Shown here: piece after piece, positions 2 through 43,250 of the stretch | Position numbering within the stretch: the first letter of the stretch is position 1 | Layout: the number at the start of each line of letters is the position of its first letter | DNA from: Terriglobia bacterium | GTDB lineage: Bacteria; Acidobacteriota; Terriglobia; 2-12-FULL-54-10 | NCBI GenBank assembly: GCA_963666975.2 | Contig: CAXVYR010000004.1 | Coordinates: 672,001-736,000 of the forward strand | Reading direction: 5' to 3' | Length of the DNA: 64,000 nt | The notes under the pieces: model-generated | Seen by the model: the letters and a program-made list of their open reading frames with translations, nothing else | Told to the model about the DNA's origin: nothing | Database searches by the model: none | Position numbers and translations under genes: made by a program

Positions 2-1141
2 CGCCCTGTTGACAGAGCCCTCGGCAAATCTGCATTTCGGTTCCCGTTGCTTGACCTCCGGGGAAGTGCCCGGCAGCTTGCTGCAGCCCCCGCCCATCAT
101 CGAAGTCATGCCGGCAAACCAGAAATAATCCGAGCCTGTGCCTTCCCGGCTGACGTTGGCCTGAACAAAATAGGGATCTGAATGGAAGTCATTTCGAAAT
201 GGCCAGAAATAGCCCCAGGCAAAGCGGGCAGCCAACCGACCCTGGCGGTCCAGGGTGCTGTAGGCGCGGATCGCTCCCCCGGTGTAGAGCGACGTCCCGT
301 TGAGGGTCACCCCCAAGGCTGCCGTCCAGGACAACCCCAGACGGTAGATCTCCGCCAATACATCGGGCGGATAAACGACATCCTGTTCCACATACCGATA
401 GCAGGTACCGCAGGCTCCCGTCTGCTCAAAATCTGTCGGCGCACCGCCAAGGTCTCCTAACGGCGAGTAGAGAAACTCGTCCCATTGATCCCCATAGAAC
501 TTTTTTACGGCATCGATCGCTTTCTGGTTCATCAGAAGTCCGGTAAAGCCCCCGCGAACAATCAACGGATTGTTGGGAGCAGCCAGATCCAGCAACTGCT
601 TGTTAATCTGGCGTCCCATAAGCTCCCTAATCTCTTTTCCCCACCGATATTCCTTCCCAAACAACAAACTGATCCGAATCCATTGTCCGGCCCTGGCCTT
701 CTGGACCGCTTCGTCGAGGACCCGTGGAAATTGCTGGACCACCTCAGCCGCAGGAACGTTCAAAAACCGCTCAATGTGCATGTCATCGGATACCACTTTC
801 CCTACAACCACCGGATTCAGCGGGCTCCAGTCCTGGGGGTGATCGTGCGTGGCGCCAAAGCCCGGCGTTACCGTCCTCCCCTTCAGGTCAATGGATTTGG
901 TGTTGCTATCTGCCAGCCGCCGAACCTGGGAGTTGCCACCCACGGCCACGATTTTTCCACCCCGGATCGCAATCGCCTGAGCGATGGTGCCCAACTCCGA
1001 GTTGACCTCATGGTTGTCCACGGTCACGATCTTCCCATTGTAGAGAATGGTATCCGGTGCTTGTTGGGCCCAAAGGAGGCCCCGTCCAGCCCAAATGACA
1101 CACACCATCAGCACAACTCGCAAAACCCATTGCTTTTTCAT
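2..1141 (-). CDS. Secreted amidohydrolase family 3 (YtcJ-like), runs off the window's left edge
   Basis: Own translation from ATG 1141: MKKQWVLRVVLMVCVIWAGRGLLWAQQAPDTILYNGKIVTVD...AQAIAIRGGKIVAVGG...IDLKGRTVTPGFGATHDH. This is a signal peptide plus the amidohydrolase N-terminal motif with HxH. Absent from the ORF track because no stop lies in the window. Confidence 0.85.
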   Translation of the reverse strand, partial: MKKQWVLRVVLMVCVIWAGRGLLWAQQAPDTILYNGKIVTVDNHEVNSELGTIAQAIAIRGGKIVAVGGNSQVRRLADSNTKSIDLKGRTVTPGFGATHDHPQDWSPLNPVVVGKVVSDDMHIERFLNVPAAEVVQQFPRVLDEAVQKARAGQWIRISLLFGKEYRWGKEIRELMGRQINKQLLDLAAPNNPLIVRGGFTGLLMNQKAIDAVKKFYGDQWDEFLYSPLGDLGGAPTDFEQTGACGTCYRYVEQDVVYPPDVLAEIYRLGLSWTAALGVTLNGTSLYTGGAIRAYSTLDRQGRLAARFAWGYFWPFRNDFHSDPYFVQANVSREGTGSDYFWFAGMTSMMGGGCSKLPGTSPEVKQREPKCRFAEGSVNRA

Positions 1142-1267
1142 GATTCACCCCTTCAGCTTTTGTTGGCAGGTTAAGCCAGAAGCTCCGAGTACAAAGTATA
1201 CGCTCCCCCGTTATCGGTTCCATCTCTTTTCGCCTCTCTTGTTGCAAGGCCTCAATCCTGTCCCCAA

Positions 1268-1296
1268 TTGCTTTCCCCTCTCCCCTCGTGTAATCT
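1268..1296 (+). promoter_or_regulatory. Sigma70-like promoter of the shared upstream module (copy 1)
   Basis: TTGCTT-17 nt-TAATCT, conserved in three other copies in the window. Confidence 0.6.
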
Positions 1297-1329
1297 TTTT
1301 CAATCATTTCAATCAGCCAAGGGTAATCC

Positions 1330-4300
1330 GTGCCCATGTCCCTAGATGCCCAGGTTCTTGCCAACCAGTATAGAGAATATCCAAATAGTTTGGATTTTTG
1401 GAACCACTTCCTGCGCAGGCTGGGTGTCTTTGGACTGGCGGTCATTCTTCACTTTCTGCTCGCACCTTACCACTCTCCAGCGCAGGGTCTCATCACCACC
1501 GTAGCCGGTAGTGGACGCTTCGTTTTTTCCGATGACGGCGGGTCGGCAACGAACGCGTCACTGGGAGAGATTGCGGGAATCGCGGTGGACGCGGCCGGCA
1601 ATGTCTTCGCAGCGGATTATGACAATAATCTCGTGGTGAAGATTTCCCCTGCCGGCGTTCTTACCGTGGTGGCGGGAAACGGTCTTTGTTGTTCGTCCGG
1701 CGATGACGGGCCGGCCACCAGCGCCTCGCTCACCTTTCCCGATGATGTGGCGGTGGATGCGGCCGGCAACCTGTACATCGCTTCCTTTGGCCGCATCCGC
1801 AGGGTTAGTCCGGACGGGATTATTGCCACCGTCGTGGTTGATGGCTTCAGCCCCAATGGTTTGACGGTAAACGCGGCCGGCGAGCTGTACATCGCGGACA
1901 CGCTGGACCACCAGATCTTCAAGGTTAATTTTTCCGAGAGGATTGTCACCACCGTTGCCGGCAGTGGGGTCGAGGGCTTTTCCGGAGACGGCGGGCCAGC
2001 CACAAGTGCCTCCCTCGCTTTGAACTTTCTTGGCTTGACCGGTTTGGCAGTGGATGCGACGGGCAACCTCTACGTCGCCGACACCAATAACCACCGCATC
2101 CGCAAGGTGAGCCCTGACGGGATCATCACCACCATAGCCGGTAGCGGTGAGACGGGCCGTTTCACCGGTGGTGGGTTTTCCGGCGATGGAGGGCCGGCCA
2201 TCAGCGCTTTACTGGATGCGCCGGAGGGAGTCGCAGTGGATTCCGCCGGTAACCTCTACATCGCTGACAGGTTTAACTTCCGCATCCGCAAGGTGAGCCC
2301 TGATGGGACTATCACTACCGTGGCGGGAAATGGAGATTTGGGCTTTTCGGGGGACGGCGGCCCCGCCATCAACGCTTCCCTGTCTTTTCTCTCCGATGTA
2401 GCGGTGGATGCGGCGGGCAACCTTTATGTGGCCGATTCGGATAACTATCGCGTCCGCAAGATCAGCCCCAATGGAACGATCACGACCATAGCCGGGAATG
2501 GTTTATTCAAATTTTCTGGGGACGGAGGCCCGGCTACAAGTGCCTCGCTCGATGCGCCCTTCGGCGTGGCGGTGGATTCGCTGGGCAACTCCTACATCGC
2601 CGACACGGATAACGACGCCATCCGCAAGGTAAGCCCCGAGGGGATCATTACAACCGTAGCCGGGGGGATTGGAGTCCGCGGCTTTTCCGGGGACGACGGA
2701 CCGGCGACAGCGGCAGCGCTGAATGAACCCTTCGATGTGGCCGTGGATGCACTGGACAACCTCTACATCGGCGACGCAGGCAATAACCGCATCCGCAAGG
2801 TCGGCCTTGACGGAACAATCTCGACCGTAGCCGGAAACGGAGTCGATGGCTTTTCCGGCGATGGGGGCCCAGCCACCAGCGCTTCTCTAAAGTCTCGTCT
2901 CAGCGTGGCTGTGGACACACTCGGCAACCTTTACATCGCCGACACCTTCCACAACCGCATCCGCAAGGTGAGCTTCGCCGGGATAATCACTACCGTGGCC
3001 GGGGACGGTTTCGGGGGCTTTTCCGGAGATGGAGATCTGTCCACCCGCGCCTCACTCGATCTCCCGCGTAGTGTGGACGTAGATGCGACGGGCAACCTGT
3101 ACATCGCCGATTCCGATAACGACCGCATCCGCAAGGTGCTGACCACCGTGTCCTCCTTCTCGGTTAGTCCTGCGACTCTGAATTTCACAGCGATTGCCGG
3201 CTCGACGGAGATTCCGGCTCACCGAATTACTGTTTCCAGCCCCATAGTCGGTCTGCCCTGGAGTACGCGGGCATCCACGGAAACCGGCGTCGGCTGGATA
3301 GCCCTTTCGGCTGTCTCTGGCTTTTCGCCCGGCACCCTGAGCGTTTTTGTGAGTGCGGCTAGTTTGGAGCCGGGCACTTACCGGGGCGCGGTGACGGTGC
3401 AGTCGGCCCTGGCTTCTCCTCCGACGCAGACCGTGACTATCGAGTTTACCGTCACTCCGGCTTTACCTGCGCAGCTTGCCGTCGAGTCCTCCTCGCTCAC
3501 CTTTGAAATTTCAACTGGAGTGGATTCCCCCCCGGCGCAGACGCTGCGCATCAGCAATGCCGGCGGAGGAACGCTCGACTGGATGGCGCAAGCCAGCACG
3601 ATTTCCGGCGGCAACTGGCTGAGCGTCTCGCCGTCCTCGGGCTCGGCTCCGGCTGGCGCGCCGGCGGTGGTCCAGGTGAGCGCCAACGTCGCCGGCCTGG
3701 AGCCTGCCGTTTATTCGGGCTCAGTCCGGGTCGAGAGCCCCGGTAGCGACCCGCGATCAGTAGCCGTGACTTTGCTCGTCTCGCAGGTGCCCCAGATTAT
3801 CCTAGTGAGCCACAGCGGATTACTGTTCACTGGGGTGGTAGGCGGCGGGATAGTGCCGCCGCAAACCTTCGATGTCCTCAACACCGGCGAAGGGACAATG
3901 AACTGGACGGTCGAGACCAGCACTACAGGGGGCGGCAATTGGCTGAGTGTGTCGCCAACCAGCGGCACGAGCGAGGCAGCCTCGGCGCAGTCCCCGACTG
4001 TCAATGTTATTGTGAACATGGCTGGGCTGCCCACCGGGGCGTATAGCGGACTGATCGAAGTCAGCGCGCCGGTGGCGAACAACTCGCCGCAGTTTGTCAC
4101 CGTAACCTTGAACGTGCTGCCGGCGGGGAGCAATCCGGGGGTGCTGGTGCGGCCAACAGGTCTGATCTTCACGGCGCAGGCCGGAACCTCTTCGCCCGGC
4201 TCACAAACGGTGCATCTGGCTACAGCAGGGCTCGGCAACCGGACATTTGTCAGCGGCCTGCTGACCCTCGATGGTGGCGATTGGCTGGAGGCGGTCCCGC

Positions 4301-5562
4301 ACAGCGGGGTAGTTTCAGCAGGCGACCCCGTGACGATTACCATCCAACCAACACTGAGCGAACTGGTTCCCGCAGTATACCGCGCCGCGCTGACTTTGCT
4401 GTTCGCCGACGGCAGCCCGACGCAGGTGGTAGACATCCTGTTTTTGGTGGTAGCGCCTTCGGCTGGCGCGACCTCGGCACGGCTTCGTTCCGCTCCCAGC
4501 CAAAATGAAACCGCGGAGGGCTGTGTTCCCCAGCGTTTACTCGCAGTGCAGCGCATTCTGGGAATCAACTTTGTTTCGCCGGTAGCCTGGCCCAGCACCA
4601 TCGAGGCGCAAGTGGTGGACGACTGCGGTAATGCGGTGGCTGATGCCCCTGTAGTTGCCAGCTTCTCGAACGGCGACCCGCCGCTGCCGCTGGTGAGCCT
4701 GCGCGATGGACGTTACGTGGGCACATGGAGGCCGGTGAACCCCGCAGCGCAGGTAACAGTGACGGTGCAGGCCAACTTGCCGCCACTGGTTCCAGTCGAG
4801 GTGCAGGTACAGGGCCAGGTGAGCAGCAATCCTGAGGCACCGGCGCTGAATACCGGTGGGATCGTCAACGCGGCCAGTTTTGCTCCCGGTGAAGCCTTGG
4901 CACCGGGCAGCATCGTCTCGGTGTTTGGGAGCAATCTGACCCAAGGGCAGCATTTTGCTTCGCAACTGCCGCTGGAAACCACACTGGGTGGGGCCCCGCT
5001 AGTGGTGGGTGGCGTGGAGCAACATCTGTTTTTCTCCAGCGACGGGCAGATCAACGCACAGATTCCCTTCGAGCTGCCAGCTAACAGCCGCCCGCAGATG
5101 GTGGTGCGGGTCCAGCGGGAAGGCGGCGCGGAAGCCATTAGCGTGCCGGAGACGATCACGATAGCGGAAGCGCGGCCCGCGATCTTCACCACCAATCAGC
5201 AGGGCACCGGACAGGGAGCAATCCTGAACCAGGACTCTTCGCCCAACTCGGCAAAGAACCCGGAAGTGGTGGGCAATGTGATTCAAGTATTCTCCACTGG
5301 GCTTGGCAACACGGACCCTGGGGTGCCGTCTGGCCAGCTAGCGCCGAGCCAAGAGCCCTTGGCACGGGTCATCATTCCAGTGCAGGCGCAAATTGGAGGG
5401 AGTTCAGCGGCGGTACAGTTCGCCGGATTAGCACCCGGCTTTGTGGGTCTTTACCAAGTAAACGTGCAGATTCCAGCAGGTGTTGAACCAGGTTCAGAAA
5501 TCCCGCTGGTCTTGTTCCAGAATGGTGTGCCCTCGAACACCGTCACTGTTGCACTGCAATAG
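1330..5562 (+). CDS. Secreted NHL-repeat beta-propeller + BACON/Ig-like + TIGR03437-type C-terminal domain protein
   Basis: Signal peptide, about 10 NHL repeats (VAVDAAGNLYIAD..NHRIRKV), WLSVSP-type Ig/BACON repeats and C-terminal FAGLAPGFVGLYQVNVQIP. Confidence 0.9.
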   Translation: MPMSLDAQVLANQYREYPNSLDFWNHFLRRLGVFGLAVILHFLLAPYHSPAQGLITTVAGSGRFVFSDDGGSATNASLGEIAGIAVDAAGNVFAADYDNNLVVKISPAGVLTVVAGNGLCCSSGDDGPATSASLTFPDDVAVDAAGNLYIASFGRIRRVSPDGIIATVVVDGFSPNGLTVNAAGELYIADTLDHQIFKVNFSERIVTTVAGSGVEGFSGDGGPATSASLALNFLGLTGLAVDATGNLYVADTNNHRIRKVSPDGIITTIAGSGETGRFTGGGFSGDGGPAISALLDAPEGVAVDSAGNLYIADRFNFRIRKVSPDGTITTVAGNGDLGFSGDGGPAINASLSFLSDVAVDAAGNLYVADSDNYRVRKISPNGTITTIAGNGLFKFSGDGGPATSASLDAPFGVAVDSLGNSYIADTDNDAIRKVSPEGIITTVAGGIGVRGFSGDDGPATAAALNEPFDVAVDALDNLYIGDAGNNRIRKVGLDGTISTVAGNGVDGFSGDGGPATSASLKSRLSVAVDTLGNLYIADTFHNRIRKVSFAGIITTVAGDGFGGFSGDGDLSTRASLDLPRSVDVDATGNLYIADSDNDRIRKVLTTVSSFSVSPATLNFTAIAGSTEIPAHRITVSSPIVGLPWSTRASTETGVGWIALSAVSGFSPGTLSVFVSAASLEPGTYRGAVTVQSALASPPTQTVTIEFTVTPALPAQLAVESSSLTFEISTGVDSPPAQTLRISNAGGGTLDWMAQASTISGGNWLSVSPSSGSAPAGAPAVVQVSANVAGLEPAVYSGSVRVESPGSDPRSVAVTLLVSQVPQIILVSHSGLLFTGVVGGGIVPPQTFDVLNTGEGTMNWTVETSTTGGGNWLSVSPTSGTSEAASAQSPTVNVIVNMAGLPTGAYSGLIEVSAPVANNSPQFVTVTLNVLPAGSNPGVLVRPTGLIFTAQAGTSSPGSQTVHLATAGLGNRTFVSGLLTLDGGDWLEAVPHSGVVSAGDPVTITIQPTLSELVPAVYRAALTLLFADGSPTQVVDILFLVVAPSAGATSARLRSAPSQNETAEGCVPQRLLAVQRILGINFVSPVAWPSTIEAQVVDDCGNAVADAPVVASFSNGDPPLPLVSLRDGRYVGTWRPVNPAAQVTVTVQANLPPLVPVEVQVQGQVSSNPEAPALNTGGIVNAASFAPGEALAPGSIVSVFGSNLTQGQHFASQLPLETTLGGAPLVVGGVEQHLFFSSDGQINAQIPFELPANSRPQMVVRVQREGGAEAISVPETITIAEARPAIFTTNQQGTGQGAILNQDSSPNSAKNPEVVGNVIQVFSTGLGNTDPGVPSGQLAPSQEPLARVIIPVQAQIGGSSAAVQFAGLAPGFVGLYQVNVQIPAGVEPGSEIPLVLFQNGVPSNTVTVALQ

Positions 5563-5586
5563 CCTCTTTGGGGCGCGGACTGGAAT

Positions 5587-5635
5587 AACTGGTTTGAAGA
5601 ACTGAAGCATGAAGGTGCCCACAGGGAATGACTGA
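5587..5635 (+). pseudogene. Orphan 3' end of kinase/TolB-like propeller gene (NWFEELK...KVPTGND*)
   Basis: aac tgg ttt gaa gaa ctg aag, then a 1-nt shift, then aag gtg ccc aca ggg aat gac tga. The TGA overlaps the next ATG. Confidence 0.7.
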
Positions 5636-5937
5636 TGAAAGCAAAGAAAATCTGCCCCAGGTGCAAGTGGGATTTTCATTTCAGGAAAAAGGGGAAGTGT
5701 CCGGGATGCGGGGCGACACTAATGCTTCCATCTGATCGATGGACGGAAGTTCGCCCAACAAAAGAGTATTATGCGTTGGACTATCCCTCATCGACAGGGC
5801 GATGGCATTACATTGACGATATGGACAAGGCTGTGCAGCGAGCCATGCTTCAATATGAGGCCGCGATGCAGGGTGAGAGAAAGCAAGCAGAAGAAAAAGA
5901 ATTGGCGAGAACGCTGTCCAGATACGGTCCCGATTGA
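5635..5937 (+). CDS. Small zinc-ribbon hypothetical protein
   Basis: CPRC...CPGC motif in a 100-aa ORF. Confidence 0.6.
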   Translation: MKAKKICPRCKWDFHFRKKGKCPGCGATLMLPSDRWTEVRPTKEYYALDYPSSTGRWHYIDDMDKAVQRAMLQYEAAMQGERKQAEEKELARTLSRYGPD

Positions 5938-6120
5938 GAACCTAATAAGCCATACGATCTGAGAATGGAACATGGCCTATTCAACCGCGCTTCCAAATCA
6001 TCAGTCCACCCCGAGCGAACCCGTCATTGCTTGACTGGAACTTGGAAGCAAACCATTGTCGGAGTGTACAATATCGAATCAAGAAAGCACTTACCGGACA
6101 TCCCCAAAAAGGAGGGTAAC

Positions 6121-6483
6121 TTGGCAACGCTGGATCGGTGCTGCTCTATTCACCCCTATTTCAAGATTCGTGAAGGACATGTGGAGGACTTCAAGGCCCT
6201 TTGTGAACGATTTGTTGCAAAAACGAATCAGGAACCCAAAGCTCTATATTATGGCTTCAGCTTAGATGGAAATGAAGTTCATTGCCGGGAAGGTTATTCA
6301 GATGCTGAAGGGTTATTGAGCCATCTCGATAACGTCGCATCCCTCTTGGAAGAGGCCCTCAAGATTGCCGACCTCACTCGTCTGGAAGTTCATGGTGCCG
6401 AAGAGGAGTTATCGAAACTGCGAGAGTCCCTAGCCTCACTCAAGCCACAATTCTTCACATTGGAGTATGGGTTCCGCCGTTAA
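6121..6483 (+). CDS. ABM-like (dimeric alpha/beta barrel) protein
   Basis: AAGGAGG RBS before TTG 6121; PYFKI..FKALC..EPKALYYGF..CREGYSDAEGLLSHL. Confidence 0.7.
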   Translation: MATLDRCCSIHPYFKIREGHVEDFKALCERFVAKTNQEPKALYYGFSLDGNEVHCREGYSDAEGLLSHLDNVASLLEEALKIADLTRLEVHGAEEELSKLRESLASLKPQFFTLEYGFRR

Positions 6484-6588
6484 CAACCTATCGCTCCAAG
6501 TCGTTTGCAAGTTGCTTCGTGATGACAGGGTGCGCGTAGACCTTCCCGATGAAACCCTGCCCTTCATGCAGGTGGGAACGAAGCGCCG

Positions 6589-6648
6589 CAAATCACCATC
6601 GTGCTGAACTGGTTTGAAGAGCTAAAGCGGCGGCTGCCTGCCAACTGA
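6589..6648 (+). pseudogene. Orphan kinase-family 3' end (QITIVLNWFEELKRRLPAN*)
   Basis: Direct translation; no upstream gene body. Confidence 0.8.
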
Positions 6649-6725
6649 ACCGCCGTAAGGCCCAAAAGTTAATTCCTGTTAGATTGGGGAGCGTGGCGGA
6701 TAATATCGATAGCCGGAAGGTAACC

Positions 6726-7400
6726 ATGAACAACTTATGTGCCGCATTTTTGTTGCTGGCAGCATTGGTATTCCTGATGTTTGGAGCCGCTCAGGCAGAG
6801 ACAATCCACTTCGACTCGGACTCCATCGGTTCCCTGCCTTCAGGTTGGTCCTCGGCGATGACCCACAGCGGTGGGCTGGGCCGGTGGGAGATCGTCAGAG
6901 ACGACACGGCGCCGAGCAAGCCCAATGTGCTGGCACAGCTTTCCTCCGACAGCACGCGTGGGCGTTACCCGCTGGCGGTCTTCAACAAAGTGAGTTGCAA
7001 GAATGGTGACCTGCGCGTGAAATTAAAGCCGGTCTCGGGCGAGGTGGATGCTTCCGGCGGCCTGGTATGGCGTTACCTGGACGAGAATAACTACTACATC
7101 GTCCGCGCCAATGCGCTGGAGGACAACGTAGTCCTCTATAAAGTCGAAAACGGCAAACGCTCTTCCCTGGCTCCGAAGGGAAAGGCCCTGGGAACATACG
7201 GCGTCGAGACAAAGGTGTCCGGGCAAACCTGGCACACACTCCGTGTCGCCTTCCAGGGCTCTCTCTTTACCGTCTACTTTAACGGAGAAAAGCTGTTTGA
7301 AGTGGAGGACACCACTTTCACCCAGGCAGGCAATGTCGGCTTGTGGAGCAAGGCTGACAGCGTCACCCATTTTGACGATTTTCAGGTTGCAGTGAAATAA
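6726..7400 (+). CDS. Secreted DUF1080/ConA-like domain protein
   Basis: Signal peptide; GGLVWRY.DENNYY..RANALEDN, WHTLRV.F.G, GNVGLWSKADSVTHFDDF. Confidence 0.8.
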   Translation: MNNLCAAFLLLAALVFLMFGAAQAETIHFDSDSIGSLPSGWSSAMTHSGGLGRWEIVRDDTAPSKPNVLAQLSSDSTRGRYPLAVFNKVSCKNGDLRVKLKPVSGEVDASGGLVWRYLDENNYYIVRANALEDNVVLYKVENGKRSSLAPKGKALGTYGVETKVSGQTWHTLRVAFQGSLFTVYFNGEKLFEVEDTTFTQAGNVGLWSKADSVTHFDDFQVAVK

Positions 7401-7454
7401 GGCACCGCTTGCCGCCCCGCGCTTGGCAGATGAAGCGAAGGCTATCCGCACCAC

Positions 7455-7617
7455 TGTGCGGAAATCAAATTATGGACCGAGAGAAGGGCTGGGGAATTGC
7501 TGGCTGAGTCTACCAAGCGCGGCGGGGACAGGAAGTCGGAATCAAAATCACGCGATGTTACTTTGAGCGAAGTTGGCATCACCCGGATGCAATCCCACCG
7601 CTGGCAGGCTGTGGCGG
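7455..7617 (+). pseudogene. Fragment of phage-type protein (N-terminal region seen in phage DNA methyltransferase-associated proteins)
   Basis: AEIKLWTERRAGELL...GGDRKS...TLSEVGITRMQSHRWQAVA; no proper start. Confidence 0.5.
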
Positions 7618-7694
7618 GGGGTTGCCTAAAAAGAAAAACTGCCGCACTCGACCTGCCCGCACTGCGAGGAGAGGGTATTCGACGCACTGCCCCC

Positions 7695-7854
7695 GGTGTA
7701 ATGCGGAGGAGGGAGGAGTTACGAGGAAAAATTGAAGAATGACCGTCAGTCCAAGGACACCCAGCCTGCGCAGGAGGTGGTTCCACAAATCCAAACTATT
7801 TGGACCAACGCCAAAGGGGTTTACAACAGCCTGGGTGCCTGGGGAAACTGACAC
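7695..7854 (-). pseudogene. 5' stub (signal-peptide region) of a third NHL-protein paralogue
   Basis: MSVSPGTQAVVNPFGVGPNSLDLWNHLLRRLGVLGLTVILQFFLVTPPS aligns with the N-termini at 1330 and 14241, then homology stops. Confidence 0.8.
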
Positions 7855-8140
7855 GTGTTACCCCTCGTTTCATTGAAAATGTTGAGGAAAGATTACATGA
7901 CGTGAAAAGGTAAATCAATTGTTGGACGGGGTTTCCTGGGCCTGTAGCTGGGCTCCGAGTGCGGTCGAGGAGACAAGCCCCAGATTACTCCTCAGTAGTC
8001 GCCTTATGTTTACCGACGATCCATTCTGCCCCAGTGACGGCGCACTCGGAAACTATCCGGCGGCAGGCCGTACATAGTTTCCGAGTAGGCGACCACTCGG
8101 ACAGAATCACGCCCTTCACATTTGAGGTCTTGACCGGTCA
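7855..8140. repeat. Dispersed non-coding repeat (promoter module plus hairpin module)
   Basis: Blocks shared with 14242-14530, 49425-49834 and 56145-56440. Promoter on the minus strand: TTGATT-17-TAATCT (7918-7890). Perfect 13-bp inverted repeat at 8044-8056/8074-8086. Confidence 0.85.
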
Positions 8141-8143
8141 AAC

Positions 8144-8173
8144 AACACGCCGCTACAACTCTTCAAACCAGCT
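8144..8173 (-). pseudogene. Orphan kinase-family 3' end (SWFEEL*RRV)
   Basis: The minus strand reads agc tgg ttt gaa gag ttg tag cgg cgt gtt, about 33 nt after the stop of the 8207 gene. Confidence 0.65.
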
Positions 8174-9453
8174 CTTCTTGTCTGCCTGTCAGTCTTACTA
8201 AATCAACTACTGCACAGTCATCGTGACCGTAGGGCTGCTCTGCCCGGCCACGTTAAGGACCACCGGCACGTCGTTGCCAGTCGTTACCCCCTCGGGAACC
8301 ACGGCGTTAACTTGATACAATCCAGCATAGCCCGGCGCGAGCCCTGCAAATTGTACCGGGGCATTCACTCCTCCAATGGTAACCATGACTGGGTTTGCCG
8401 TTATAGCTAGAGGAAGCGAGGAAGGCGCGGCTTCACCTGCGGTTACCGGCGGGTTTACCGCTCCCAGCCCGGAGCACCAGATAGTCACCACGTCTCCCGT
8501 CTTGGCCGGGTTCGACCCGTCCGCCAGCACCGAGGTCGTCGCCGTGGCCACAAAGACCAACCCTTGCCCCTTGCCCGACTGGTTCAGTGTAAAGACCGCC
8601 GGTTGGGCATCTGCTACAGTCACAGGTTCCGGCACTGTAAAACTCGTCCCCCGCTGCACCACAAGCTGATGCTCCGTGTTAGTGGCTATCCCGTAGGGCA
8701 CCATTGCGTTGATCTGTCCTTCGCTGGTGAACAGCAATGGGAGCGTTTGCCCGCCCAGCAGCACCGAGGTGCCCGCCAACTGCGTGGACAGCGGGAGCGC
8801 ATCGGCAGTGCCGGTCCCGTCGGCCATCTCCACCCCGAAGATCGAGATCATGCTGCCCGGCGAGGCTGGAACCAGCGCCGCGAAGCTGGCCGCGCTCACC
8901 ACCCCCCCTGCATTGACCTGAGGAATACTCGGATTGGCCTGTAGTCCTCCCACCAGATCGGCCGTTCCCTGCAACGTCGTGCCGGGGATCGCTGCCGTCA
9001 CCGTGATTGTGACCGCAGCTACTCCGGCATTGCGGGCCTGCCAGGTTCCGCTCCATCGCCCATCGCGCAGGGGGACCAGGCTCAGCGGAGGATCGCCGTT
9101 GGAGAAAGTCGCCAGCACGGACCCGCTGACCATCGGGTTGCCACAGTCATCCACCACCCGCACCTCCACCGGGGTTGGCCACGCGGCAGGCACGTTGAAC
9201 TGATCCGGCAATAAGGTGAAAACAGGGAGCAATTCCGTCGGCGTACAGGTGCTTTGCGCCGGAAATGCTTGCTGCTGCGCCCCTGCGCCGGCGGTCAATA
9301 CGAATAACAACCTCACCGTCCGGACAGTGCCATCCTGGAATAACAGTGTCAACACTCCTCGCCGGATGCCAGCCTCCAGCCCGCTGAGTTCGGGCTGCAC
9401 CACGATCCGGCTCGGCCGGTCTGGGGCTACTGTAGCGTTGGTGGGGAGGTGGA

Positions 9454-10902
9454 GAAGGTGTCCCAAACTCAGTTGCAGGTTGGGACGGCGGGTTGAGTTC
9501 ATATTACGCCACTTCCTCCTTGTGAGAGGAAGCAGCGTTTGGACTTCGGCCGAGAATCGATGCCAAAGCCCAGAGATCGTGATAACCCATGATCTTCCGG
9601 AAATTCTTCTCGGTCAGCAGAAACGCTCCTGCCACCCAGCGCAACGTCATCTCGCCGTCGCGCCAGCGGCAAACATTGCCAGTCTTTTTCCGCACGCCCG
9701 ACTGCGGGCTCTCGATGAGGTTCGTGGTTGCCAGGCAGCGGTGGAGGCTGGGAGGAACGTCGGCTCGATTGATCGTAAAGGTCTCCTCCAACCCTTCGCG
9801 CAAGCTGGCGGCTGCTGCCGGATGATCGCACTCGATCATCCCAGCGAGCTTTTTTATGCGCACGATGCCTTCCTCGGCTTGGGGCAATCGCCAGGCGGCG
9901 CGCATCAGCGACCGCACCTGATTCGCCAGCATTTTGTCGCCCTTTGGTAACCGCTCAGCCACGTTGCGCAGCTTATGAGTACGGCAACGCTGCACCAGCT
10001 GATTGCTGCCGAATACTTCCTCGATCCCCGCGCGGAGCGCTTTGGCGCCGTCGATCACAAACAGATAGCGCTGATCCGTGCGCAAACCTTGCTGGCGCAG
10101 GCGGGTGAGAAGGTCTTTCACCGCAGCGGCGTTTTCGGTCGCGCCCAGTTGAATCCCCAGCACATGCTTGCGGCCCTCGCTGTCCACGCCCACGGCGCTG
10201 ATGACGTGGTGGGAGCCGAACCGCATTCCGTCCAGGTAAATCACCAGAATCTCGACCTCCTCCCAGCGCCGCGCCAACAGTTCTTCCAGCCGCCGCGCTC
10301 CTTGCTCGGCCGCTTCCCGGCTCACCTGAGACTTCGACACCCCAGCGCTGTTGGCCATCTCCGGGATCACCTCGCGGTAGTTCCGCGTCGAAACCCCTTT
10401 CAACAGTGCCTCGAACATCTCCTCGCCCGTCTTCTCGCTTTTCCGCAGCGCTTCGTAGGCCGGCACCGCTTCTTCCCCTCCGCCCTTCCGGCGCAGCCGG
10501 GGCCGCTCCACCCGCAGCTGGCGATCGGCCAGTTTCACCCTCCCCAATTGCCGGCCATGCCAGCGCACCTCTCCGCTCGCCTTCCCGGGACTCTTTGGCC
10601 CCGCGATTTGCTCTGCGCTCATGCTCAGAATCGTTTCAATCAAACCTCGCCCGGCCCGATCAATCACCTCATCCACCGCCAGACGCGCCTCCGTGATCAG
10701 ATCCACCACCGGCAACAGCATCTGTCCGTTGGTTTGGCAAAACTTCTGGATGGTTTCTTCGGCTCCCTTGGAACCCAGTTCCAAAACGTGATATTTTCCC
10801 TTCATTCGGCGGTTCTCCTTCTATAGGATTTAGGCTTGGCCCGATTCTATTCGATTCGGGCCGAACCGCCGTTCAACCTTCAACTATGTATGGGACACCC
10901 TC
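9454..10902 (-). mobile_element. IS256-family element, copy 1
   Basis: Imperfect TIRs GAGGGTGTCCCATACATAGTTGAAGGTTG / GAAGGTGTCCCAAACTCAGTTGCAGGTTG; TSD GAGGTGGA at 9446-9453 and 10903-10910. Confidence 0.95.
9504..10805 (-). CDS. IS256 (Mutator-type) transposase
   Basis: GVSTRNY, IYLDG, FVIDGAKAL, QRCRTHKLRN, TTNLIES motifs. Confidence 0.95.
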   Translation of the reverse strand: MKGKYHVLELGSKGAEETIQKFCQTNGQMLLPVVDLITEARLAVDEVIDRAGRGLIETILSMSAEQIAGPKSPGKASGEVRWHGRQLGRVKLADRQLRVERPRLRRKGGGEEAVPAYEALRKSEKTGEEMFEALLKGVSTRNYREVIPEMANSAGVSKSQVSREAAEQGARRLEELLARRWEEVEILVIYLDGMRFGSHHVISAVGVDSEGRKHVLGIQLGATENAAAVKDLLTRLRQQGLRTDQRYLFVIDGAKALRAGIEEVFGSNQLVQRCRTHKLRNVAERLPKGDKMLANQVRSLMRAAWRLPQAEEGIVRIKKLAGMIECDHPAAAASLREGLEETFTINRADVPPSLHRCLATTNLIESPQSGVRKKTGNVCRWRDGEMTLRWVAGAFLLTEKNFRKIMGYHDLWALASILGRSPNAASSHKEEVA

Positions 10903-12489
10903 GAGGTGGACGAACCAATCCACTCCATCAAAAGTCACCCGCCCCGAGGCAAAGTTGGTCGGACTGGCAGCAAGGTTGGAGACAAACACGTTCTGAGAGC
11001 CGGGCGAAGTCTCACCGGCCTCGGCGGTGAAGATCACTCCGGTCGGGCGCACGATCGGTCCAGGGTTGCTGCCTGCGGGCAGAACGTTCAGGACGATAGA
11101 AACAACCTGGGGGGAGTTGTCGGCCGTGGGCGAGGATACCTGCACCTGACCGTAGTATTCTCCTGCCGCCAGTCCCTCTGGACGGATGCTGGCTTCCAGC
11201 TGTGGAATATTCGAGGAGGCTGCGTCGGTGGAGTCGTTGGTGGGGCTCACCGTCAGCCAGCTTGGACCGCCTGAGAGCGTCGAGGTGCTCACCGACCATT
11301 CCATCACACCCTGTCCGGAGTTCAACACCTCAAAGGTCTGCGGCGGCACCCGACCTCCGTTGGCCACCGCCGTAAAGGTCAAACCGGTCTGGGAGAGCAG
11401 GATGGAGGACTGCTCAATCGCGCTTATGGTGATTGTGACAGGCACATCAATGCTCTGGTTGGTGGTGGAACTGAAAACCGTGATGCGCCCAGTGTATGTG
11501 CCGACATCCAATCCACTGGGGTCAATCGTCACGGGCACAAAGACAGGGTCCGCCAGCGTGGCAGTGCCGCTCTCGGTTTCGACCGTCAGCCAGGGGCCGC
11601 CGGAGGCGGTGGTGGCCGTGACCTGAAAGTCTAACGAGCCGCCCCCCTGATTAAGAACCTTGATCTGCCTTCTCCTTGCCTCGTCGCCCTGCACAAACGA
11701 GAGGGTTCTGCTCCTGGGTCTCACCGCCAGGTTGGGTTCCGCTGCCGTCTCCACGTTGAACGTCACCATGACCATCCGCATCGCTGGATCTGCATTCAGT
11801 GCCGTAATGTTCACAGTTCCTGAATAGGTGCCGGGAGTGAGCTGTGCGGGGTCCGCAGTAATCTCCACTGTGGTCGGCATCGATCCGTTCAAGGGAGTTG
11901 CCTCCAGCCACGCACTGCCGCTGGAAGTACTTAAGCTTACGGAGAACGGAATGCCGGGAACCAAGCTGGAGATGGTAACGTTCTGCGCCGCAGAGGGCAG
12001 CCCGCCTGCCTGAGCGGAGAAGCTCAAAGCTTCCGGCAAAACGAAGAAGGAAGGCGCGGCCGCCAGTATCACCCGGATACGATTGTTCAATGTATCGGCA
12101 AAGTAAAGGTTGCCGACCGTATCGACCGCCACCCCGCGGGGTAGATTTAGGGAAGCGCTGGTGGCCAGCCCGCCATCGCCGGAAAAGCCCAAGTCTCCAT
12201 TGCCGGCCACGGTGGTCATGATCCCGTCGGCGCTGACCTTGCGGATGCGGTTGTTCTGCGTGTCGGCGATGTAGAGGTTGCCGGCCGCATCCACCGTCAC
12301 ACTTTGGGGTAGATTCAGGAGGGCGCTGGTGGCGGGACCTTCATCGCCGGAAAAGCCCGCTTCCCCGGTGCCGGCCACAGTGGTGATAATTCCGCCGGGG
12401 CTGACCTTGCGAATGCGGTGGTTATCCGTGTCGGCGATGTAGAGGTTGTCGGCCGCATCCACCGTTACACCGAGGGGTCGATTCAGGGA

Positions 12490-13805
12490 GGTGCTGGTGG
12501 CGGGGCCTCCATCGCCAGAAAAGCCCCGTTCTCCGTTCCCGGCCACGGTGGAAATAATCCCGCCAGGGCTGACCTTGCGGATGCGGTGGTTGAACCGGTC
12601 GGCGATGTAGAGGTTGTCGGTCGCATCTACTGCGATCCCAAAGGGCTGATTCAGGGAGGCGCTGATGGCAGGGCCTCCATCGCCAGAAAAGCCCCGTTCT
12701 CCGTTCCCGGCCACGGTGGAAATAATCCCGCCAGGGCTGACCTTGCGGATGCGCTGGTTGAGCCAGTCGGCGATGTAGAGGTTGCCGGCCGTATCGAACG
12801 CCACCCCGCGGGGTAGATTTAAGGAAGCGCTGGTGGCCAGACCGCCATCGCCGGAAAAACCTCGAATTTCATTACCAGCTACGGTCGAGATAACCCCACC
12901 AGGGCTGACCTTGCGGATGCGGCTGTTGGACAGGTCGGCGATGTAGAGGTTGCCGGCCGCATCCAAGGCCACACTGGTGGGATTATTCATTAATGCGCTA
13001 GTGGCCGGCCCACCGTCGCCTGCGAATTTGAATATTCCGTTGCCAGCCACCGTGCTAATAATCCCGTCGGCACTGACCTTGCGGACGAGGAAGTTCTCCG
13101 TGTCGGCAATGTAGAGTTTGCCGGTCACATCCACCGCCACATCGCGGGGAAAATTCAATTTGGCGTCGGTAGCCGGCCCGCCATCGCCGGAAAAGCCTGC
13201 TTCCTCGGTCCCTGCCACAGTAGTGATAATTCCGGCGGTATCAACCTTGCGGATGCGGTGGTTATCCTTGTCAGCGATGTAGAGGTTGCCGGCCGCATCC
13301 ACCGTGATGTCAAAAGGTAGATTCAGTGAGGCGCTGGTGGCAGGGCCTTCATCGCCAGAGAAGCTTGCTTCCCCGGTGCCTGCCACGGTGGTGATGATCC
13401 CATCAGGGCTAACCTTGCGGATGCGGTGGTTGAACAGGTCGGCGATGTAGAGGTTGCCGGTCGCATCCACCGCGATCCCAAAGAGCTGATTCAGGGAGGC
13501 GCTGATGGCAGGGCCTTCATCGCCAGAGAAGCTCGCTTCCCCGGTGCCTGCCACGGTGGTGATGATCCCATCGGGGCTAACCTTGCGGATGCGGTGGTTG
13601 AACCGGTCGGCGATGTAGAGGTTGCCGGTCGCATCCACCGCGATCCCAAAGGGTTGATTCAGTGAGGCGCTGGTGGCAGGGCCTTCATCGCCAGAGAAGC
13701 TTGCTTCCCCGGTGCCTGCCACGGTGGTGATGATCCCATCGGGGCTAACCTTGCGGATGCGGTGGTTGAACCGGTCGGCGATGTAGAGGTTGCCGGCTGC
13801 ATCGA
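12490..13805 (-). repeat. Near-identical 168-bp intragenic NHL repeat units
   Basis: Three near-identical 56-aa units at about 13320-13805 and two at about 12490-12780. Confidence 0.85.
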
Positions 13806-14241
13806 CCGTCACACTGTGGGGTTGATTCAGTGAAGCGGCGGTAGCCGGACCGCCATCACCGGAAAACCCACGGATACCGTTGCCCGCCACCACGGTGAGC
13901 ATCTCTGTGGGAGAGACCTTCATCACCATGTGGTTGCCGAAATCAGCGGCGAAAAGATTACCGGCCGCGTCTACTACAACTCCGGAAACCAACCCCAGCG
14001 GGGCATCAGTCGCTGGCCCTCCGTCGCCCTGAAAGGTCCGATCCGTGCCAGCCACCGTCGTGATGATGCTTTGTGGAGTGATGCCCTGCGCCAAGGAAGG
14101 AGGAGTTGCGAGGAAAAAGTGAAGAATGACCACAAGTCCCAGGACACTCAGCCGACGCAGGATGTGGTTGCACAAATCCAAATTCCTTGGACCTACGCCA
14201 CACGGGTTGGCAAGAGCCTGGGCACCTGGGGATATGGGCAC

Positions 14242-14530
14242 GGATTACTCCCGCATAATTGAAAATATTGGTCAAAGATTACACGAGGGGAGAGGGGAAA
14301 GCAATTGGGAACAGAAGACTTCCTCGGCTTACAGCCGGGCTCCGAGTGCAGTCGAGGCGGACAATTCCCAGATTACTCCTCAGTAGTCGCCTTATGTTTA
14401 CCCACAATTCCGCAGGTTAATCTGAAGTTCTGCCCGCGTGACGGCGCACTCGGAAACAATTCGCTTTGGCAAATCACGCGTTAACGGTCGAGCGGCTCTG
14501 GTCCGACAGATCGCAAGTAAACGCCGTAGG
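14242..14530 (-). repeat. Dispersed non-coding repeat including promoter of the 14241 gene
   Basis: TTGCTT-17-TAATCT (14304-14276); 14345-14465 aligns with 56145-56260 and partly with 7950-8055. Confidence 0.85.
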
Positions 14531-15162
14531 CTTTATCCATTCAATCCCGCCGACCACCTGCACAGAATGCAGTGGGTCTCCCCTTACGATTGCCCCTCTT
14601 GAAAGACTTCCCGTGGCGATCCACTGAGAAAATGTAGTAAAGATTGTAGAAAGTCTACAGTAAATTAGGTAGAATGTCTATTTAAGTGGTCTGTAATGAG
14701 AGGCTTGCAAGGTAGATCGCGGTTGCCCAAGGCGATTGCCGCGCCTTTTCGCCAATGCCCTATTTTTAGATGCTTACGGTTCAATGAGTTGGGACCGACC
14801 TATTGAAACTTGTGGAACCGCGGTGAGCCTGAGTGCTGTGGCAGCTACAATATTATCTACATCCATTGGGGTGGAACTGGAGTGCCCCCCTTGCCTTAGG
14901 CAAACTGCCATTGCTACACTTACCGACTTCTGCGGCTGGTTCGACTACCGACATCTTTTGATGGTCATCTATCTTGGCGATGAACCGCTGAGCCCCGGGT
15001 CGGATTTCGGATTGGAGATAACTCTATGCCTAATACAGGTTCAATTGACCACACGATCTAATTTTTGGCGAACGACAGGCCGCAACGCGTCATTTTCGCG
15101 ATCGTGTCGGACTTTCCATATCGAGATTGACTTAAGTCTTCTTTTCCTGTGAGATCACACTC

Positions 15163-15916: not shown

Positions 15917-16120
15917 AGCCCCTGAGGGGCGTAAGAGTTTAGCCCACGGCGCCAGCCGTGGGTGGGAAAGGCTACGCCGGATCAGCCCCGGAAGGGGCAC
16001 CGAAAGGAGCGAAAGACGAGGGCCGGAGCGTCTTGCGCCCCTCTGGGGCTTGGGGTAACACCGGTCCCCATTGTCCCAGGGCTTACGCCCTGGGCTAGAT
16101 TCTGCCGCCCTTGCAGGGCT
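15917..16120. repeat. REP-like nested palindromic element
   Basis: Hairpins gcccctgaggggc, cccacggc..gccgtggg, gccccggaaggggc and cccagggc..gccctggg between convergent genes. Confidence 0.75.
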
Positions 16121-16777: not shown

Positions 16778-17045
16778 CCTATCCTCCTCAACAAAGGTTT
16801 CGGGGCTCTACCCGGAATTTCCGATTTGAGCCCCCGGAGTCAAAATATTACGCCAGCCGCATTATCGAGTCAATGGTTGCTATAGGAGCGGTCCGGAATT
16901 ATTCTTGTAGCGATTCCCTGAGCGGTGTAGCCGCCAACCGGACAGGGCCCCGACTTTCGCCCCGCAAAGGCTAGGCGGCTGAACTATTCTAGCTCAAACT
17001 GCTATCGACCTTTTAGCTCAACAGCCTATGCCAGCATCCTTGCCT

Positions 17046-27870: not shown

Positions 27871-28509
27871 TTAACTTGACAATACCGTCGAGGTAGTCAC
27901 ATCCAGCACAGCTTTCAAAGTACCGCGTACGCCGGGCGGAAAGTGATCTGCAAATTGCCACAATCGCTGATGATTGAGCGTGGAAAGATCGATCTCGTCC
28001 CACGGGATTTCTTTTCCTTTCAAGCGCCGGTAATAGATCCAATCGAGCAGCGCCTTCTCCGGATAGGCTAAGATGGTCTCAGCTCCACTTGTGGTTCTCA
28101 CCTGCTCGAAGCCGAAGAACCGTTGGTCAGAAAAATGGATGTAGGAGATCTCGCCGAGGAAAGTTTCCACTCGGCGTGGGCGCCCTATCGTCACGCAGGT
28201 CAGGGTGGGAGTAACCTGCTGAGTCAGTCCGTGATAACTGAGTGCCCAATCGAGAGACAAATAGGCAGGAGGAAATAAAATTACGGCCAACTGCTCTCCT
28301 TGGGGACTTTTCAGGAGATTGGCATAGAGCCTGGGACCAACACGGCGCAACAACCCTACCTGCTGGTTGCGCCAGCAGACCTGACGGACGGCAGAGTCCT
28401 TCAACCCCGTCAGTTTTGCTAGGGATGTCACGGTGAGGAAATCGCCTTCTGGGCTCGGCAGATCTCGCAAAATAGACAACCAATTTCTCGTGGTAACGTA
28501 ACGCTTCAT
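27871..28509 (-). CDS. abiEi: Type IV TA antitoxin, AbiEi-like
   Basis: wHTH N-terminus; PAYLSLDWALSYHGL..Q, AYPEKALLDWIY. Confidence 0.85.
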   Translation of the reverse strand: MKRYVTTRNWLSILRDLPSPEGDFLTVTSLAKLTGLKDSAVRQVCWRNQQVGLLRRVGPRLYANLLKSPQGEQLAVILFPPAYLSLDWALSYHGLTQQVTPTLTCVTIGRPRRVETFLGEISYIHFSDQRFFGFEQVRTTSGAETILAYPEKALLDWIYYRRLKGKEIPWDEIDLSTLNHQRLWQFADHFPPGVRGTLKAVLDVTTSTVLSS

Positions 28510-29282
28510 AGCTTTGTGAAAGGCTTGAGTAGGTTCCTCACCGACCGAACGAGGCTCGCATAGTTGTCCTTGCGAAGCTTGTTAAGCCAGGGCGTCGGCA
28601 GGAGAGGAGCAAGATCGGCTTCGAGCCTGCTCGGGCTGATGAGTTTGAGTCTCCTCTGGATTTCAAGGTCCTCGATTTCTTCCAAAGCAAGCCAGTGCTC
28701 AAACTCCCGCTTGTCCAGCTTGGCTTCGAGATTCAGCAGATACCACAGATCGAACACATCCCGGGCCTTGAGGAATTTTCTTTTTAATAACGTCTTGATT
28801 TTGAGGAAGAGAAGTTCGTCGAGGACGGGACAGACCACGACTTCGCTTGCCAGCGATTCGGATCGGAGAAGTTTTGTCTCCGTTCGGCCTACTGCGCCGG
28901 CGATGCGGCTGAATTCGAGCACGACCATCCGACGGCTTGCCAGCCGAATATCTATGGTTGCCGGTTCCAGGCTGCGCACCCGACAATCAATGGGTTGCCT
29001 AAGAAGAGCGGCTAAGGGCAGGAGCCTCCGCTCCAGGCTTCCCGAGATTTTGGCTAAATCCCCGGAGTGCAATATTCGCAGGGGAAAGAGATCAACATCC
29101 CGGGAGTACCGAGGGCTGTCATAGAGGAGATGCAAGACATTACCCCCAATAAAGATGGCCAGATCCGGAAATACGCGGAAGAATACGAGCAAAGATTCGC
29201 GGGCTAGCGTGGATCCCAATGCATGGTCCTCTGCAACGCCTTGCTCCCGGGCTTGCCGGCGAATTTGCTCCCATAGGTTCAT
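28506..29282 (-). CDS. abiEii: Type IV TA toxin, AbiEii-like nucleotidyltransferase
   Basis: FIGGNVLHLLYDSPRYSRDVD, KIKTLL.R..ARDVFDLWYL. Confidence 0.85.
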   Translation of the reverse strand: MNLWEQIRRQAREQGVAEDHALGSTLARESLLVFFRVFPDLAIFIGGNVLHLLYDSPRYSRDVDLFPLRILHSGDLAKISGSLERRLLPLAALLRQPIDCRVRSLEPATIDIRLASRRMVVLEFSRIAGAVGRTETKLLRSESLASEVVVCPVLDELLFLKIKTLLKRKFLKARDVFDLWYLLNLEAKLDKREFEHWLALEEIEDLEIQRRLKLISPSRLEADLAPLLPTPWLNKLRKDNYASLVRSVRNLLKPFTKL

Positions 29283-34004: not shown

Positions 34005-34014
34005 GAGGAGAGCA

Positions 34015-43063: not shown

Positions 43064-43120
43064 GAAAATCCCACGTTCATGGTCAGTATCCGGGTAGGTC
43101 TTAATCATCCGTTGATTGCT

Positions 43121-43250
43121 CGCCGGATAAGTAAACACTAGGCGACTTATCGTTACCTATCCGGGAAAACACCATCAATCCCCCTTCAAATCTGGTGGTT
43201 GCAGCATCAGCCCACCAGCGCAGACACCCAATTTATTTGCTCCCCCGTTG
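43121..43250 (+). repeat. Dispersed hairpin repeat (CCGGATAGGTAAACAC..GCGACT..ACCTATCCGG type)
   Basis: Related to 49171-49310, 56386-56440 and 60582-60599 (minus strand). Confidence 0.75.

Follow-up and report, generated by a model that had tools for sequence, protein, structure and literature searches.

Integron cassettes are single, co-oriented and promoterless-looking open reading frames (ORFs) of unrelated function that stand behind a common promoter, sometimes in arrays, and at the Rhs and CdiA polymorphic toxin loci a conserved gene stays working while only its tip is exchanged by homologous recombination. Putative mobile promoters, surveyed by Nijveen, Matus-Garcia and van Passel in 2012, were recognised where genes without homology to each other have upstream DNA that is at least 80% identical along 50 nt or more; most of the families in that survey were pairs, and a filter removed promoters reaching into coding regions (PMC3575422). 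The same paper cites two cases, E. coli citrate and Lactococcus ldh, in which a promoter was captured through rearrangement, and names Correia, ERIC and REPIN as promoter-bearing miniature elements (PMC3575422). How transferred genes become active is the topic of PMC6614815 and PMC11111574. Here we analyse a stretch of 64,000 nt from a Terriglobia bacterium of the Acidobacteriota (GenBank assembly GCA_963666975.2, contig CAXVYR010000004.1, positions 672,001 to 736,000; the whole stretch is called the window, and coordinates count from its first letter), in which the two ends of a Ser/Thr kinase gene frame unrelated genes. We suggest that the interiors of kinase genes with a PD40 propeller were recurrently replaced in place, the promoter being kept by selection, and give this reading a probability of roughly 55%.

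The 5' end of the frame is marked by a 32-nt block that reads CAATTG(C/A)TTT(C/A)CC...TC(G/A)TGTAA(T/A)CT, which we call the 5' module. Searched for as the pattern CAATTGNTTTNCCNTNNCNCNTCNTGTAANCT across the whole window, on both strands and with 0 mismatches, it has exactly four sites, at 1265 (+), 7890 (−), 14276 (−) and 49770 (+), and 0 matches in 100 shuffled sequences. The genes behind the four blocks are a gene with NHL repeats (gene A; block 1265–1296, +, leader 1297–1329), a 91-codon stub (block 7890–7921, −), a second NHL gene (gene B; block 14276–14307, −) and a Ser/Thr kinase gene at 49835 (block 49770–49801, +), the only kinase linked to a module. An earlier sequence-only reading of this DNA had proposed that these four genes share promoter, leader and GTG start and have related first codons. 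This is borne out: all four blocks match the pattern exactly, the distance from block to GTG start is 33–36 nt at every site, and gene B begins MPISPGAQ, the stub MSVSPGTQ and the kinase MGVSSGTH, as had been stated, with MPMSLDAQ in gene A. The similarity between the kinase and the NHL genes ends at about codon 8.

The gene A block is identical (32/32) to the gene B copy and to copies at three loci in related genomes (L001, L016 and L020). Between genes A and B the leader is 68% and codons 9–53 are 77% identical, and the block of the stub has drifted to 25/32 against the gene A and gene B copies. Conservation of the blocks before live genes together with drift of the one before a stub that has lost its cargo fits selection on a promoter. 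Set against the σ70 consensus, the block offers TTGCTT and TAATCT at a spacing of 17 nt, with TTG and TAnnnT kept and a score of 6/12. From its position, its co-orientation with the downstream gene and its conservation we infer that the block has promoter activity.

Scanned with the block as a pattern, two related metagenome-assembled genomes (MAGs) yielded 20 loci, 16 in an Acidobacteria MAG and 4 on a 2.18-Mb contig of a Terriglobia MAG. L008 and L009 overlap, share two copies and were counted once, giving 20 distinct MAG copies and, with the four in the window, 24. Past the module the consensus reads MPISPGARLGSYEVLSPLGAGGMGEVY, which is the start of a kinase, and at the DNA level it runs on through the leader into GTG CCC ATT TCC CCA GGT GCC CGT CTT GGC... 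A kinase domain follows only 1 of the 24 modules (the one at 49770 in the window); behind the others stand kinase stubs of 0–83 codons and then an unrelated gene, the cargo. Cargo genes are co-oriented with their modules and belong to at least 16 unrelated families in an all-against-all comparison; 18 of the 20 same-strand cargo ORFs of the MAG loci have a family match. The families include PAS-GGDEF, a periplasmic binding protein, two distant PQQ dehydrogenases, NHL/lactonase-like proteins, several amidohydrolases and amidases, and further PilZ, DUF1554-like, Kelch, a TonB-type outer-membrane protein, a sodium:solute symporter (SSF) and CBM9/DUF5916.

The point at which kinase sequence gives way to cargo is directly visible and varies between units. 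It lies straight after the −10-like element in L010, within the leader in L007, L015 and the first L008 copy, at codons 6–10 in L019, the NHL genes, L011, L012 and L003, at codons 17–33 in L016, L001, L013, L017, the second L008 copy, L005, L006 and L020, and at codons 60–83 in L018, L002 and L014. Using 13 full-length kinases as tblastn queries, we detected stubs of 17–83 aa with 69–80% identity in L001, L002, L005, L006, L008, L014, L016, L017, L018 and L020; shorter stubs were read from DNA identity, and the NHL genes keep only about eight kinase codons. In the same search, the 133 kb covered held no fragment of the kinase interior (residues ~90–850).

Two arrangements in the fragmented MAG stand out. 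L008 (JADFGZ010000076.1) has two modules 741 nt apart on the same strand, which enclose a PilZ gene and lie between two amidohydrolase genes, and L010, L019 and L020 fall on one contig of 38.6 kb (JADFGZ010000004.1) that carries three modules on one strand.

Two trivial explanations of this recurrence, a chimeric MAG assembly at the repeat or a coincidence of convergent strong promoters, seem to us extremely improbable. One MAG is indeed highly fragmented, in contigs of 3.7–38.6 kb, and the repeat is about 100–200 nt long; but identical anatomy is found in the 64-kb window and on the 2.18-Mb contig, a chimera joins only sequences that both carry the repeat, and the likeness extends beyond two hexamers over spacer, leader and coding stub.

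The ends of the frame point to one protein family. A protein collection was queried with an 86-codon kinase stub from a relative, and among the full-length matches (at least 700 aa) the precomputed Pfam lists give Pkinase in 23/23 and PD40 in 22/23. These proteins begin M-x-[IL]-x-P-G-x-x-L-G-x-Y-E, leading into the glycine-rich loop of the Pkinase domain, and the C-terminal propeller strand of the family reads ...VVLNWFEELK(R/Q)(R/K)VP..., on the same proteins as the kinase N-terminus. The sequence-only reading had linked the two termini. The link holds: at the C-terminus the strict NWFEELK is present in 10 of the 23, and a looser pattern in 13.

The C-terminal end of the family recurs downstream of cargo. 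In the window an orphan NWFEELK remnant lies at 5587–5607 (+), 24 nt past the TAG of gene A, where homology to the kinase C-terminus stops after the K; its DNA matches remnants in L016 and L018. A second, SWFEEL*RRVV*, is at 8138–8173 (−), 30 nt past the TAG of gene B, so that a remnant of this type stands within about 35 nt of both NHL genes, as had been noted from sequence. Two more were absent from that earlier account, and both lie downstream of unrelated same-strand genes: APQITIVLNWFEELKRRLPAN* at 6589–6648 (+), 105 nt after a 172-codon ORF, with 82% tblastn identity over 17 aa to the end of the kinase P0097 and 90% DNA identity to the L016 remnant; and a remnant of about 40 aa at 60311–60436 (+), the last PD40 blade ending ...VVLNWFEELKEKVPVQ*, 215 nt after an unrelated 1124-aa gene (56722–60096) and 67% identical over 39 aa to residues 853–891 of P0045 (tblastn). 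Against the 13 full-length kinases, remnants match residues ~850–920 at 47–89% identity. Three MAG remnants have in common a trailer of about 75 nt past the kinase stop.

Modules and remnants are paired far above chance. Nine of the 24 units were evaluable, that is, with the cargo end and at least 100 nt beyond it visible, and in five of these (gene A, gene B, L007, L015 and L018) a same-strand remnant is observed 24–70 nt past the cargo stop, with lengths of 43 aa in L007, 19 aa in L015 and 12 aa in L018. Since 8 remnants occur in 133 kb, the chance per strand-specific 100-nt slot is about 0.003, and 5/9 corresponds to P = 3e-11; with the paralogs A and B counted once, 4/8 still gives P = 6e-9. 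Pairing of the two ends above chance, on which the sequence-only reading had made its case depend, is thus found among the nine evaluable units.

Direct repeats at both junctions of the five paired units are no better than in shuffles (longest word 5–7 nt), and the stretches of 24–70 nt between cargo stop and remnant hold no common motif. The remnant trailers show neither a conserved fold nor one of unusual stability; at best the z-score reached −2.1, for the hairpin repeats after remnant B. A consensus promoter and terminator scan of 1100–14800 called no terminator after any remnant. We also considered, and rejected, stop-codon read-through from cargo into remnant: the remnants of A and B are in frame, that of B with four stops between, and those of L007, L015 and L018 are out of frame. 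A fixed remnant–trailer–module junction was likewise rejected as the general case, because only remnant B closely precedes a module and the gap in L016 is 880 nt with a dioxygenase gene in it.

The pairing bears directly on a different account of the modules, namely that the 32-mer and its leader, together with kinase codons in varying number, were pasted as a mobile promoter before resident genes, which never moved, the remnants being separate debris. Near-identical promoter families before unrelated genes are on record (PMC3575422). Here, 23 of the 24 copies do not precede a kinase domain, homology often starts within about 6 nt of the 5' edge of the block, modules lie 24–139 nt past the end of the preceding same-strand gene in L008, L011, L012, L016 and L018, and the two L008 modules are close together, all of which speaks for a pasted element. 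Such an element would, however, have to be joined by a second, separate insertion, correctly ordered and oriented, to place a remnant 24–70 nt past the stop in 5/9 units, it gives no promoter purpose to stubs of up to 83 kinase codons, and no terminal repeats or target duplications were observed. Moreover, L006 and L017, in one MAG, apparently have in common a divergent HU-like neighbour besides the module, with different cargo (the neighbour is a Pfam match in L006 and was judged by eye from the upstream alignment in L017). We consider a mobile promoter unlikely, although it deserves to be taken seriously. The likely common neighbour of L006 and L017 suggests instead that the kinase locus is the recipient.

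In-place replacement would accommodate these features as follows. In this acidobacterial lineage, the coding interior of members of the expanded family of Ser/Thr kinases with a PD40 propeller would have repeatedly given way to an unrelated, co-oriented gene, probably by illegitimate recombination or deletion, with selection for expression. At each locus the promoter-like 32-mer, the leader with the start codon and a stub of 0–83 codons survive, and frequently also the last 6–45 codons (...VVLNWFEELK...) with a short trailer. The cargo would be transcribed from the kinase promoter and translated from its own start or, where the NHL genes are concerned, fused in frame to about eight initial kinase codons, while purifying selection would hold the promoter block as the stub decays. 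The orthologous pair L004 and L006 shows this gradient: the block agrees at 30/32 positions and the cargo DNA is 87% identical, against 66% for the leader and 72% for stub plus spacer. This unit is vertically inherited, its promoter-like block is constrained and its stub is decaying.

The sequence-only reading had gone further, and saw in the kinase ends a reusable expression frame whose interior is swapped. That both ends frame at least 16 unrelated cargo families bears out the frame; an active swapping system finds no support, in view of the unit-specific breakpoints, the lack of flanking direct repeats in the five paired units and the presence of the same cargo in L004 and L006. Active exchange would use the 5' module and the NWFEELK end as homology anchors and move frame and cargo together between kinase paralogs or genomes. 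It would explain why genes A and B are homologous from about 7 nt ahead of the block into the NWFEEL remnant, exactly as far as the kinase frame extends, why identical 32-mers precede different cargo in different genomes, and why three MAG remnants have a common trailer. Yet breakpoints differ from cargo to cargo, the 3' anchor often measures just 18–36 nt, orthologous units are stable between genomes, and, old paralogs aside (43–55% amino acid identity), no cargo was met again in a second frame with other outer flanks; selection explains identical live promoters beside a drifted dead one, so that conversion is unnecessary. We find such exchange rather improbable. The same doubt attaches to a broader form of the idea, in which kinase-PD40 genes would be recombinase-free 'sockets' into which cargo is transplanted by homologous recombination at the two modules. 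We think it equally doubtful that a gene lodged there, expressed at once, would then be moved to paralogous kinase loci or other genomes, as a functional analogue of an integron. The 23 of 24 modules lacking a kinase domain, and A/B homology that stops at the frame limits, are the traces that sockets would be expected to leave.

Returning to in-place replacement, several observations weigh against it. The consensus scan of 1100–14800 did not call the module as a σ70 promoter. The remnant is absent from L002, L013, L014 and the first L008 copy, four of the nine evaluable units, and for 3 of the 8 remnants (6589, 60311 and L016) no recognisable module precedes the gene. All 3' remnants are at most 45 aa and all stubs at most 83 codons long, which is not obvious from insertion and neutral decay; a whole unregulated kinase domain in a stub would plausibly be harmful, and this could be why no stub exceeds 83 codons. 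The sole module-linked kinase is of the tetratricopeptide repeat (TPR) type, no intact NWFEELK kinase was seen behind any of the 24 modules, and it is the stubs alone that mark the module as the putative native promoter of the NWFEELK family. A native kinase promoter predicts more kinases behind modules than are found, and the skew of 23/24 may be a sign that the module, or the emptied frame, spreads on its own. Finally, both MAGs are drafts, and the loci span only 2 kb each way. In our preferred reading the window preserves the relics of an evolutionary process and not a machine: an unusually clear case of promoter reuse, with no demonstrated swapping.

The two large genes that drew attention to this locus converge between 1330 and 14241 and have the same architecture. 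Gene A (1330–5562, +; 1410 aa) consists of eight kinase-derived codons, a hydrophobic signal-like segment, NHL repeats, a BACON/Ig-like region and Soli_cterm, with scores of 188 bits for TEN_NHL, 152 for NHL and 62 for BACON_2 (Pfam) and 206 for TIGR03437 (NCBIfam). Gene B is in two parts, an N-terminal one of 1122 aa (10873–14241, −; TEN_NHL 323 bits, NHL 231 bits, Pfam), 52% identical to gene A, and a C-terminal one of 431 aa with Soli_cterm (8207–9502, −; TIGR03437 214 bits). Both genes exceed the cut-offs for NHL (20 bits) and TIGR03437 (29 bits) and encode NHL-repeat/Soli_cterm proteins that are predicted to be secreted. The two are old paralogs, with 43–52% amino acid identity. The 91-codon stub (7579–7854, −) resembles genes A and B in its leader and, over codons 1–48, in its signal region (repeat 81%), and the rest is gone; it is the signal-peptide part of an NHL paralog only.

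Gene A, gene B and the stub have one common 5' breakpoint, and the visible start of L011 (MPISPGARVLSNNASG) resembles the starts of the NHL genes, as judged by eye and not with an alignment tool. Together these point to a single capture that predates the split of these genomes. The three window copies accordingly look like one ancient capture and its duplication, not like three swaps; an insertion into gene B and loss of the cargo from the stub copy would have followed. Residues 1–60 of the gene B product, used as a query, matched only the window's own protein and one close relative, so the NHL fusion is narrow, which has no bearing on the other cargo. By tblastx the window NHL locus has no synteny with the convergent module pair L013/L014, and the 'before' state of the NHL locus was therefore not recovered.

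On the minus strand the order that had been claimed (module, gene B, remnant, hairpin repeats, module) holds from 14307 to 7579, with the difference that the 'next cargo' at its end is only the stub. There is no minus-strand series of two full NHL genes, since gene A is on the plus strand and gene B is split. The spacer from remnant B to the stub module (7922–8137, −) is rich in repeats, with a hairpin of 14-bp stem and a repeat at 8063–8139 that recurs at 49573–49649. Upstream of the gene B module an extended repeat with a 10-nt inverted repeat (CCGAGTGCG...CGCACTCGG; 14308–14465, −) is common to 7922–8059, 56146–56261 and L002. Between the plus-strand remnants at 5587 and 6589 lie two small ORFs (5635–5937, 100 aa, and 5965–6483, 172 aa; both +) with no Pfam or NCBIfam match. 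Convergent with the stub is a gene for a secreted lectin-like protein of 238 aa (6684–7400, +; 3-keto-disaccharide hydrolase/DUF1080-like, by weak Pfam matches near the cut-off).

Short palindromic intergenic repeats, REP- or MITE-like, occur as CCGGATAGGT...ACCTATCCGG at 43117–43161, 49178–49222 and 56394–56438, and as CCGAGTNGGCGACCACTCGG at 8081–8100, 49429–49448 and 49591–49610. They cluster in the long spacers before the kinase gene and before gene 56722, and related pieces are found in L002, L011 and L019.

Gene B is split by an insertion sequence (IS) of the IS256 family at 9452–10902 (−; 1451 nt), with a transposase gene at 9504–10805 that scores 122 bits for Transposase_mut (cut-off 21). 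An inverted copy at 43511–44961 is 100% identical over its 1451 nt; the ends GGTGTCCCA...TGGGACACC and the flanking repeats GAGGTGGA / TCGAACAGG are those of the family. Each copy has flanking duplications of ~8–9 bp, which suggests recent activity, and the second lies just before a methyltransferase gene (44911–45780). The insertion into gene B is recent, since P0123, a protein of a close relative, is continuous over the break and joins the N- and C-terminal parts.

Transposons could also be asked to explain the frames themselves, if IS-flanked cargo landed in kinase genes and adjacent deletions mediated by the IS ate the kinase from both sides. There are four transposase genes in the window, one of them in the IS256-family copy inside gene B, and P0051, a database kinase, carries a Transposase_mut domain in the precomputed Pfam list. 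Of genes of this kind the Pfam scan showed only transposases, none of them at a junction, and no IS ends or transposase remnants were noticed at the junctions that were read, although no search was aimed at IS ends. We rate this erosion as very unlikely. That the window has no dedicated recombinase, as had been said, agrees with the Pfam scan, in which none of 38 window ORFs, most of at least 150 aa, matched an integrase or recombinase family (shorter ORFs, save two, and the MAG flanks were outside the scan).

The one kinase behind a module (49835–52348, +) has a transmembrane segment and TolB_N and TPR domains, and ends ...RFQDLLRRMNLPG, not NWFEELK. An in-frame TGA at 50744–50746 separates its kinase domain from the part with the transmembrane segment, TolB_N and TPR, and is either a nonsense mutation or a natural split into two genes. 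Next to it, at 52493–55812 (−), a TonB-type outer-membrane barrel gene is in two ORFs (785 and 321 aa) that overlap in ATGA and cover Pfam model positions 2–512 and 527–838, possibly a frameshift or a pseudogene. The 1124-aa protein of gene 56722–60096 has no Pfam match and a weak one to GH149 beta-1,3-glucan phosphorylase (74.7 bits, cut-off 1150); the gene is in a high-GC stretch (0.63–0.65), followed by the kinase 3' remnant.

At gathering thresholds Rfam gave no RNA family at modules, stubs or trailers, and elsewhere in the window just two matches to Acido-Lenti-1 and one to int-alpA; the window has no recognised tRNA gene. Acido-Lenti-1, Soli_cterm and the related MAGs all place the organism among the Acidobacteriota. 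The Acido-Lenti-1 matches, at 15917–15962 (−) and 16075–16120 (+) with 47.6 and 57.3 bits, face each other by a Cu/Zn superoxide dismutase gene, and the int-alpA match (16916–16981, −; 37.3 bits) has no integrase beside it, its neighbour being DUF6282. The lower-GC middle of the window contains the direct repeat pairs 35115–35201/37529–37615 (94%) and 20474–20609/32269–32404 (78%). A likely type IV toxin–antitoxin pair (28506–29282 and 27871–28509, −), made up of a gene for an AbiEii-type nucleotidyltransferase toxin and an ORF overlapping it upstream, shares a lower-GC stretch with a PD-(D/E)XK nuclease gene (33856–34818). A perfect tandem duplication with a 71-nt unit at 30915–31056 is in or by an unannotated 232-aa ORF.

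Compared with the systems described so far, the modules are most readily set beside putative mobile promoters, which likewise show near-identical upstream DNA before non-homologous genes, within and across genomes. Upstream of gene B, positions 14258–14309 are 94% identical over 52 nt to the upstream DNA of the PQQ-dehydrogenase gene of L015, 14242–14307 are 91% identical over 68 nt to that of the outer-membrane-protein gene of L016, and 14242–14455 are 80% identical over 217 nt to L002. These values reach the identity and length used in the mobile-promoter survey, at a position that differs from its −150 to −50 frame. Unlike those promoters, the piece seen here enters coding sequence, comes from one gene family, has a matching 3' remnant and is present in 24 copies. 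In promoter capture, too, a gene gains expression by joining a resident promoter, sometimes with a few resident codons; there the events were single and in the laboratory, whereas here one promoter family would account for at least 16 captures with both donor ends kept. Correia, ERIC and REPIN elements resemble the modules in that short repeated DNA supplies promoters, and hairpin repeats adjoin some modules here, but the module has neither terminal inverted repeats nor target duplications, and its 3' edge varies by copy.

With integrons the units have in common that unrelated co-oriented ORFs stand behind a common type of promoter, and there are arrays in L008 and on JADFGZ010000004.1 (three modules); however, each cargo has its own promoter copy, the junctions vary, neither a recombination site nor a flanking repeat is common to the units, and no IntI-type integrase appeared among the 38 window ORFs scanned. 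From the cargo stop to the remnant there is no common motif of the kind an attC-like repeat would supply, and the trailers have no conserved structure, though no attC model was run. As with Rhs and CdiA orphan modules, unrelated modules stand between pieces of a conserved gene, whose displaced ends accumulate downstream as orphans; in contrast to these, the host gene is destroyed here, and the cargo is a whole independent gene.

A literature search on NWFEEL returned only unrelated human-protein papers. The Solibacter genome paper mentions the kinase expansion, 'promoter' does not occur in its main text, and a search of it for terms did not turn up the arrangement (PMC3174227). As far as that search and the terms sought in that one paper reach, the arrangement is not in print.

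Promoter reuse has been known mostly as pairs of similar upstream sequences with no origin assigned, and here the donor is one expanded kinase family. The case adds an identifiable donor, 24 copies in three genomes, at least 16 cargo families and both donor ends, and the history of events can be read from the sequence at each unit. Secreted enzymes, transporters and signalling proteins may in this way have come to share one regulatory input, a predicted regulon in soil Acidobacteria, and large paralog families may more generally act as landing and expression sites for new genes. Should the frames also move between loci, they would represent a new route of gene capture that works without a dedicated recombinase.

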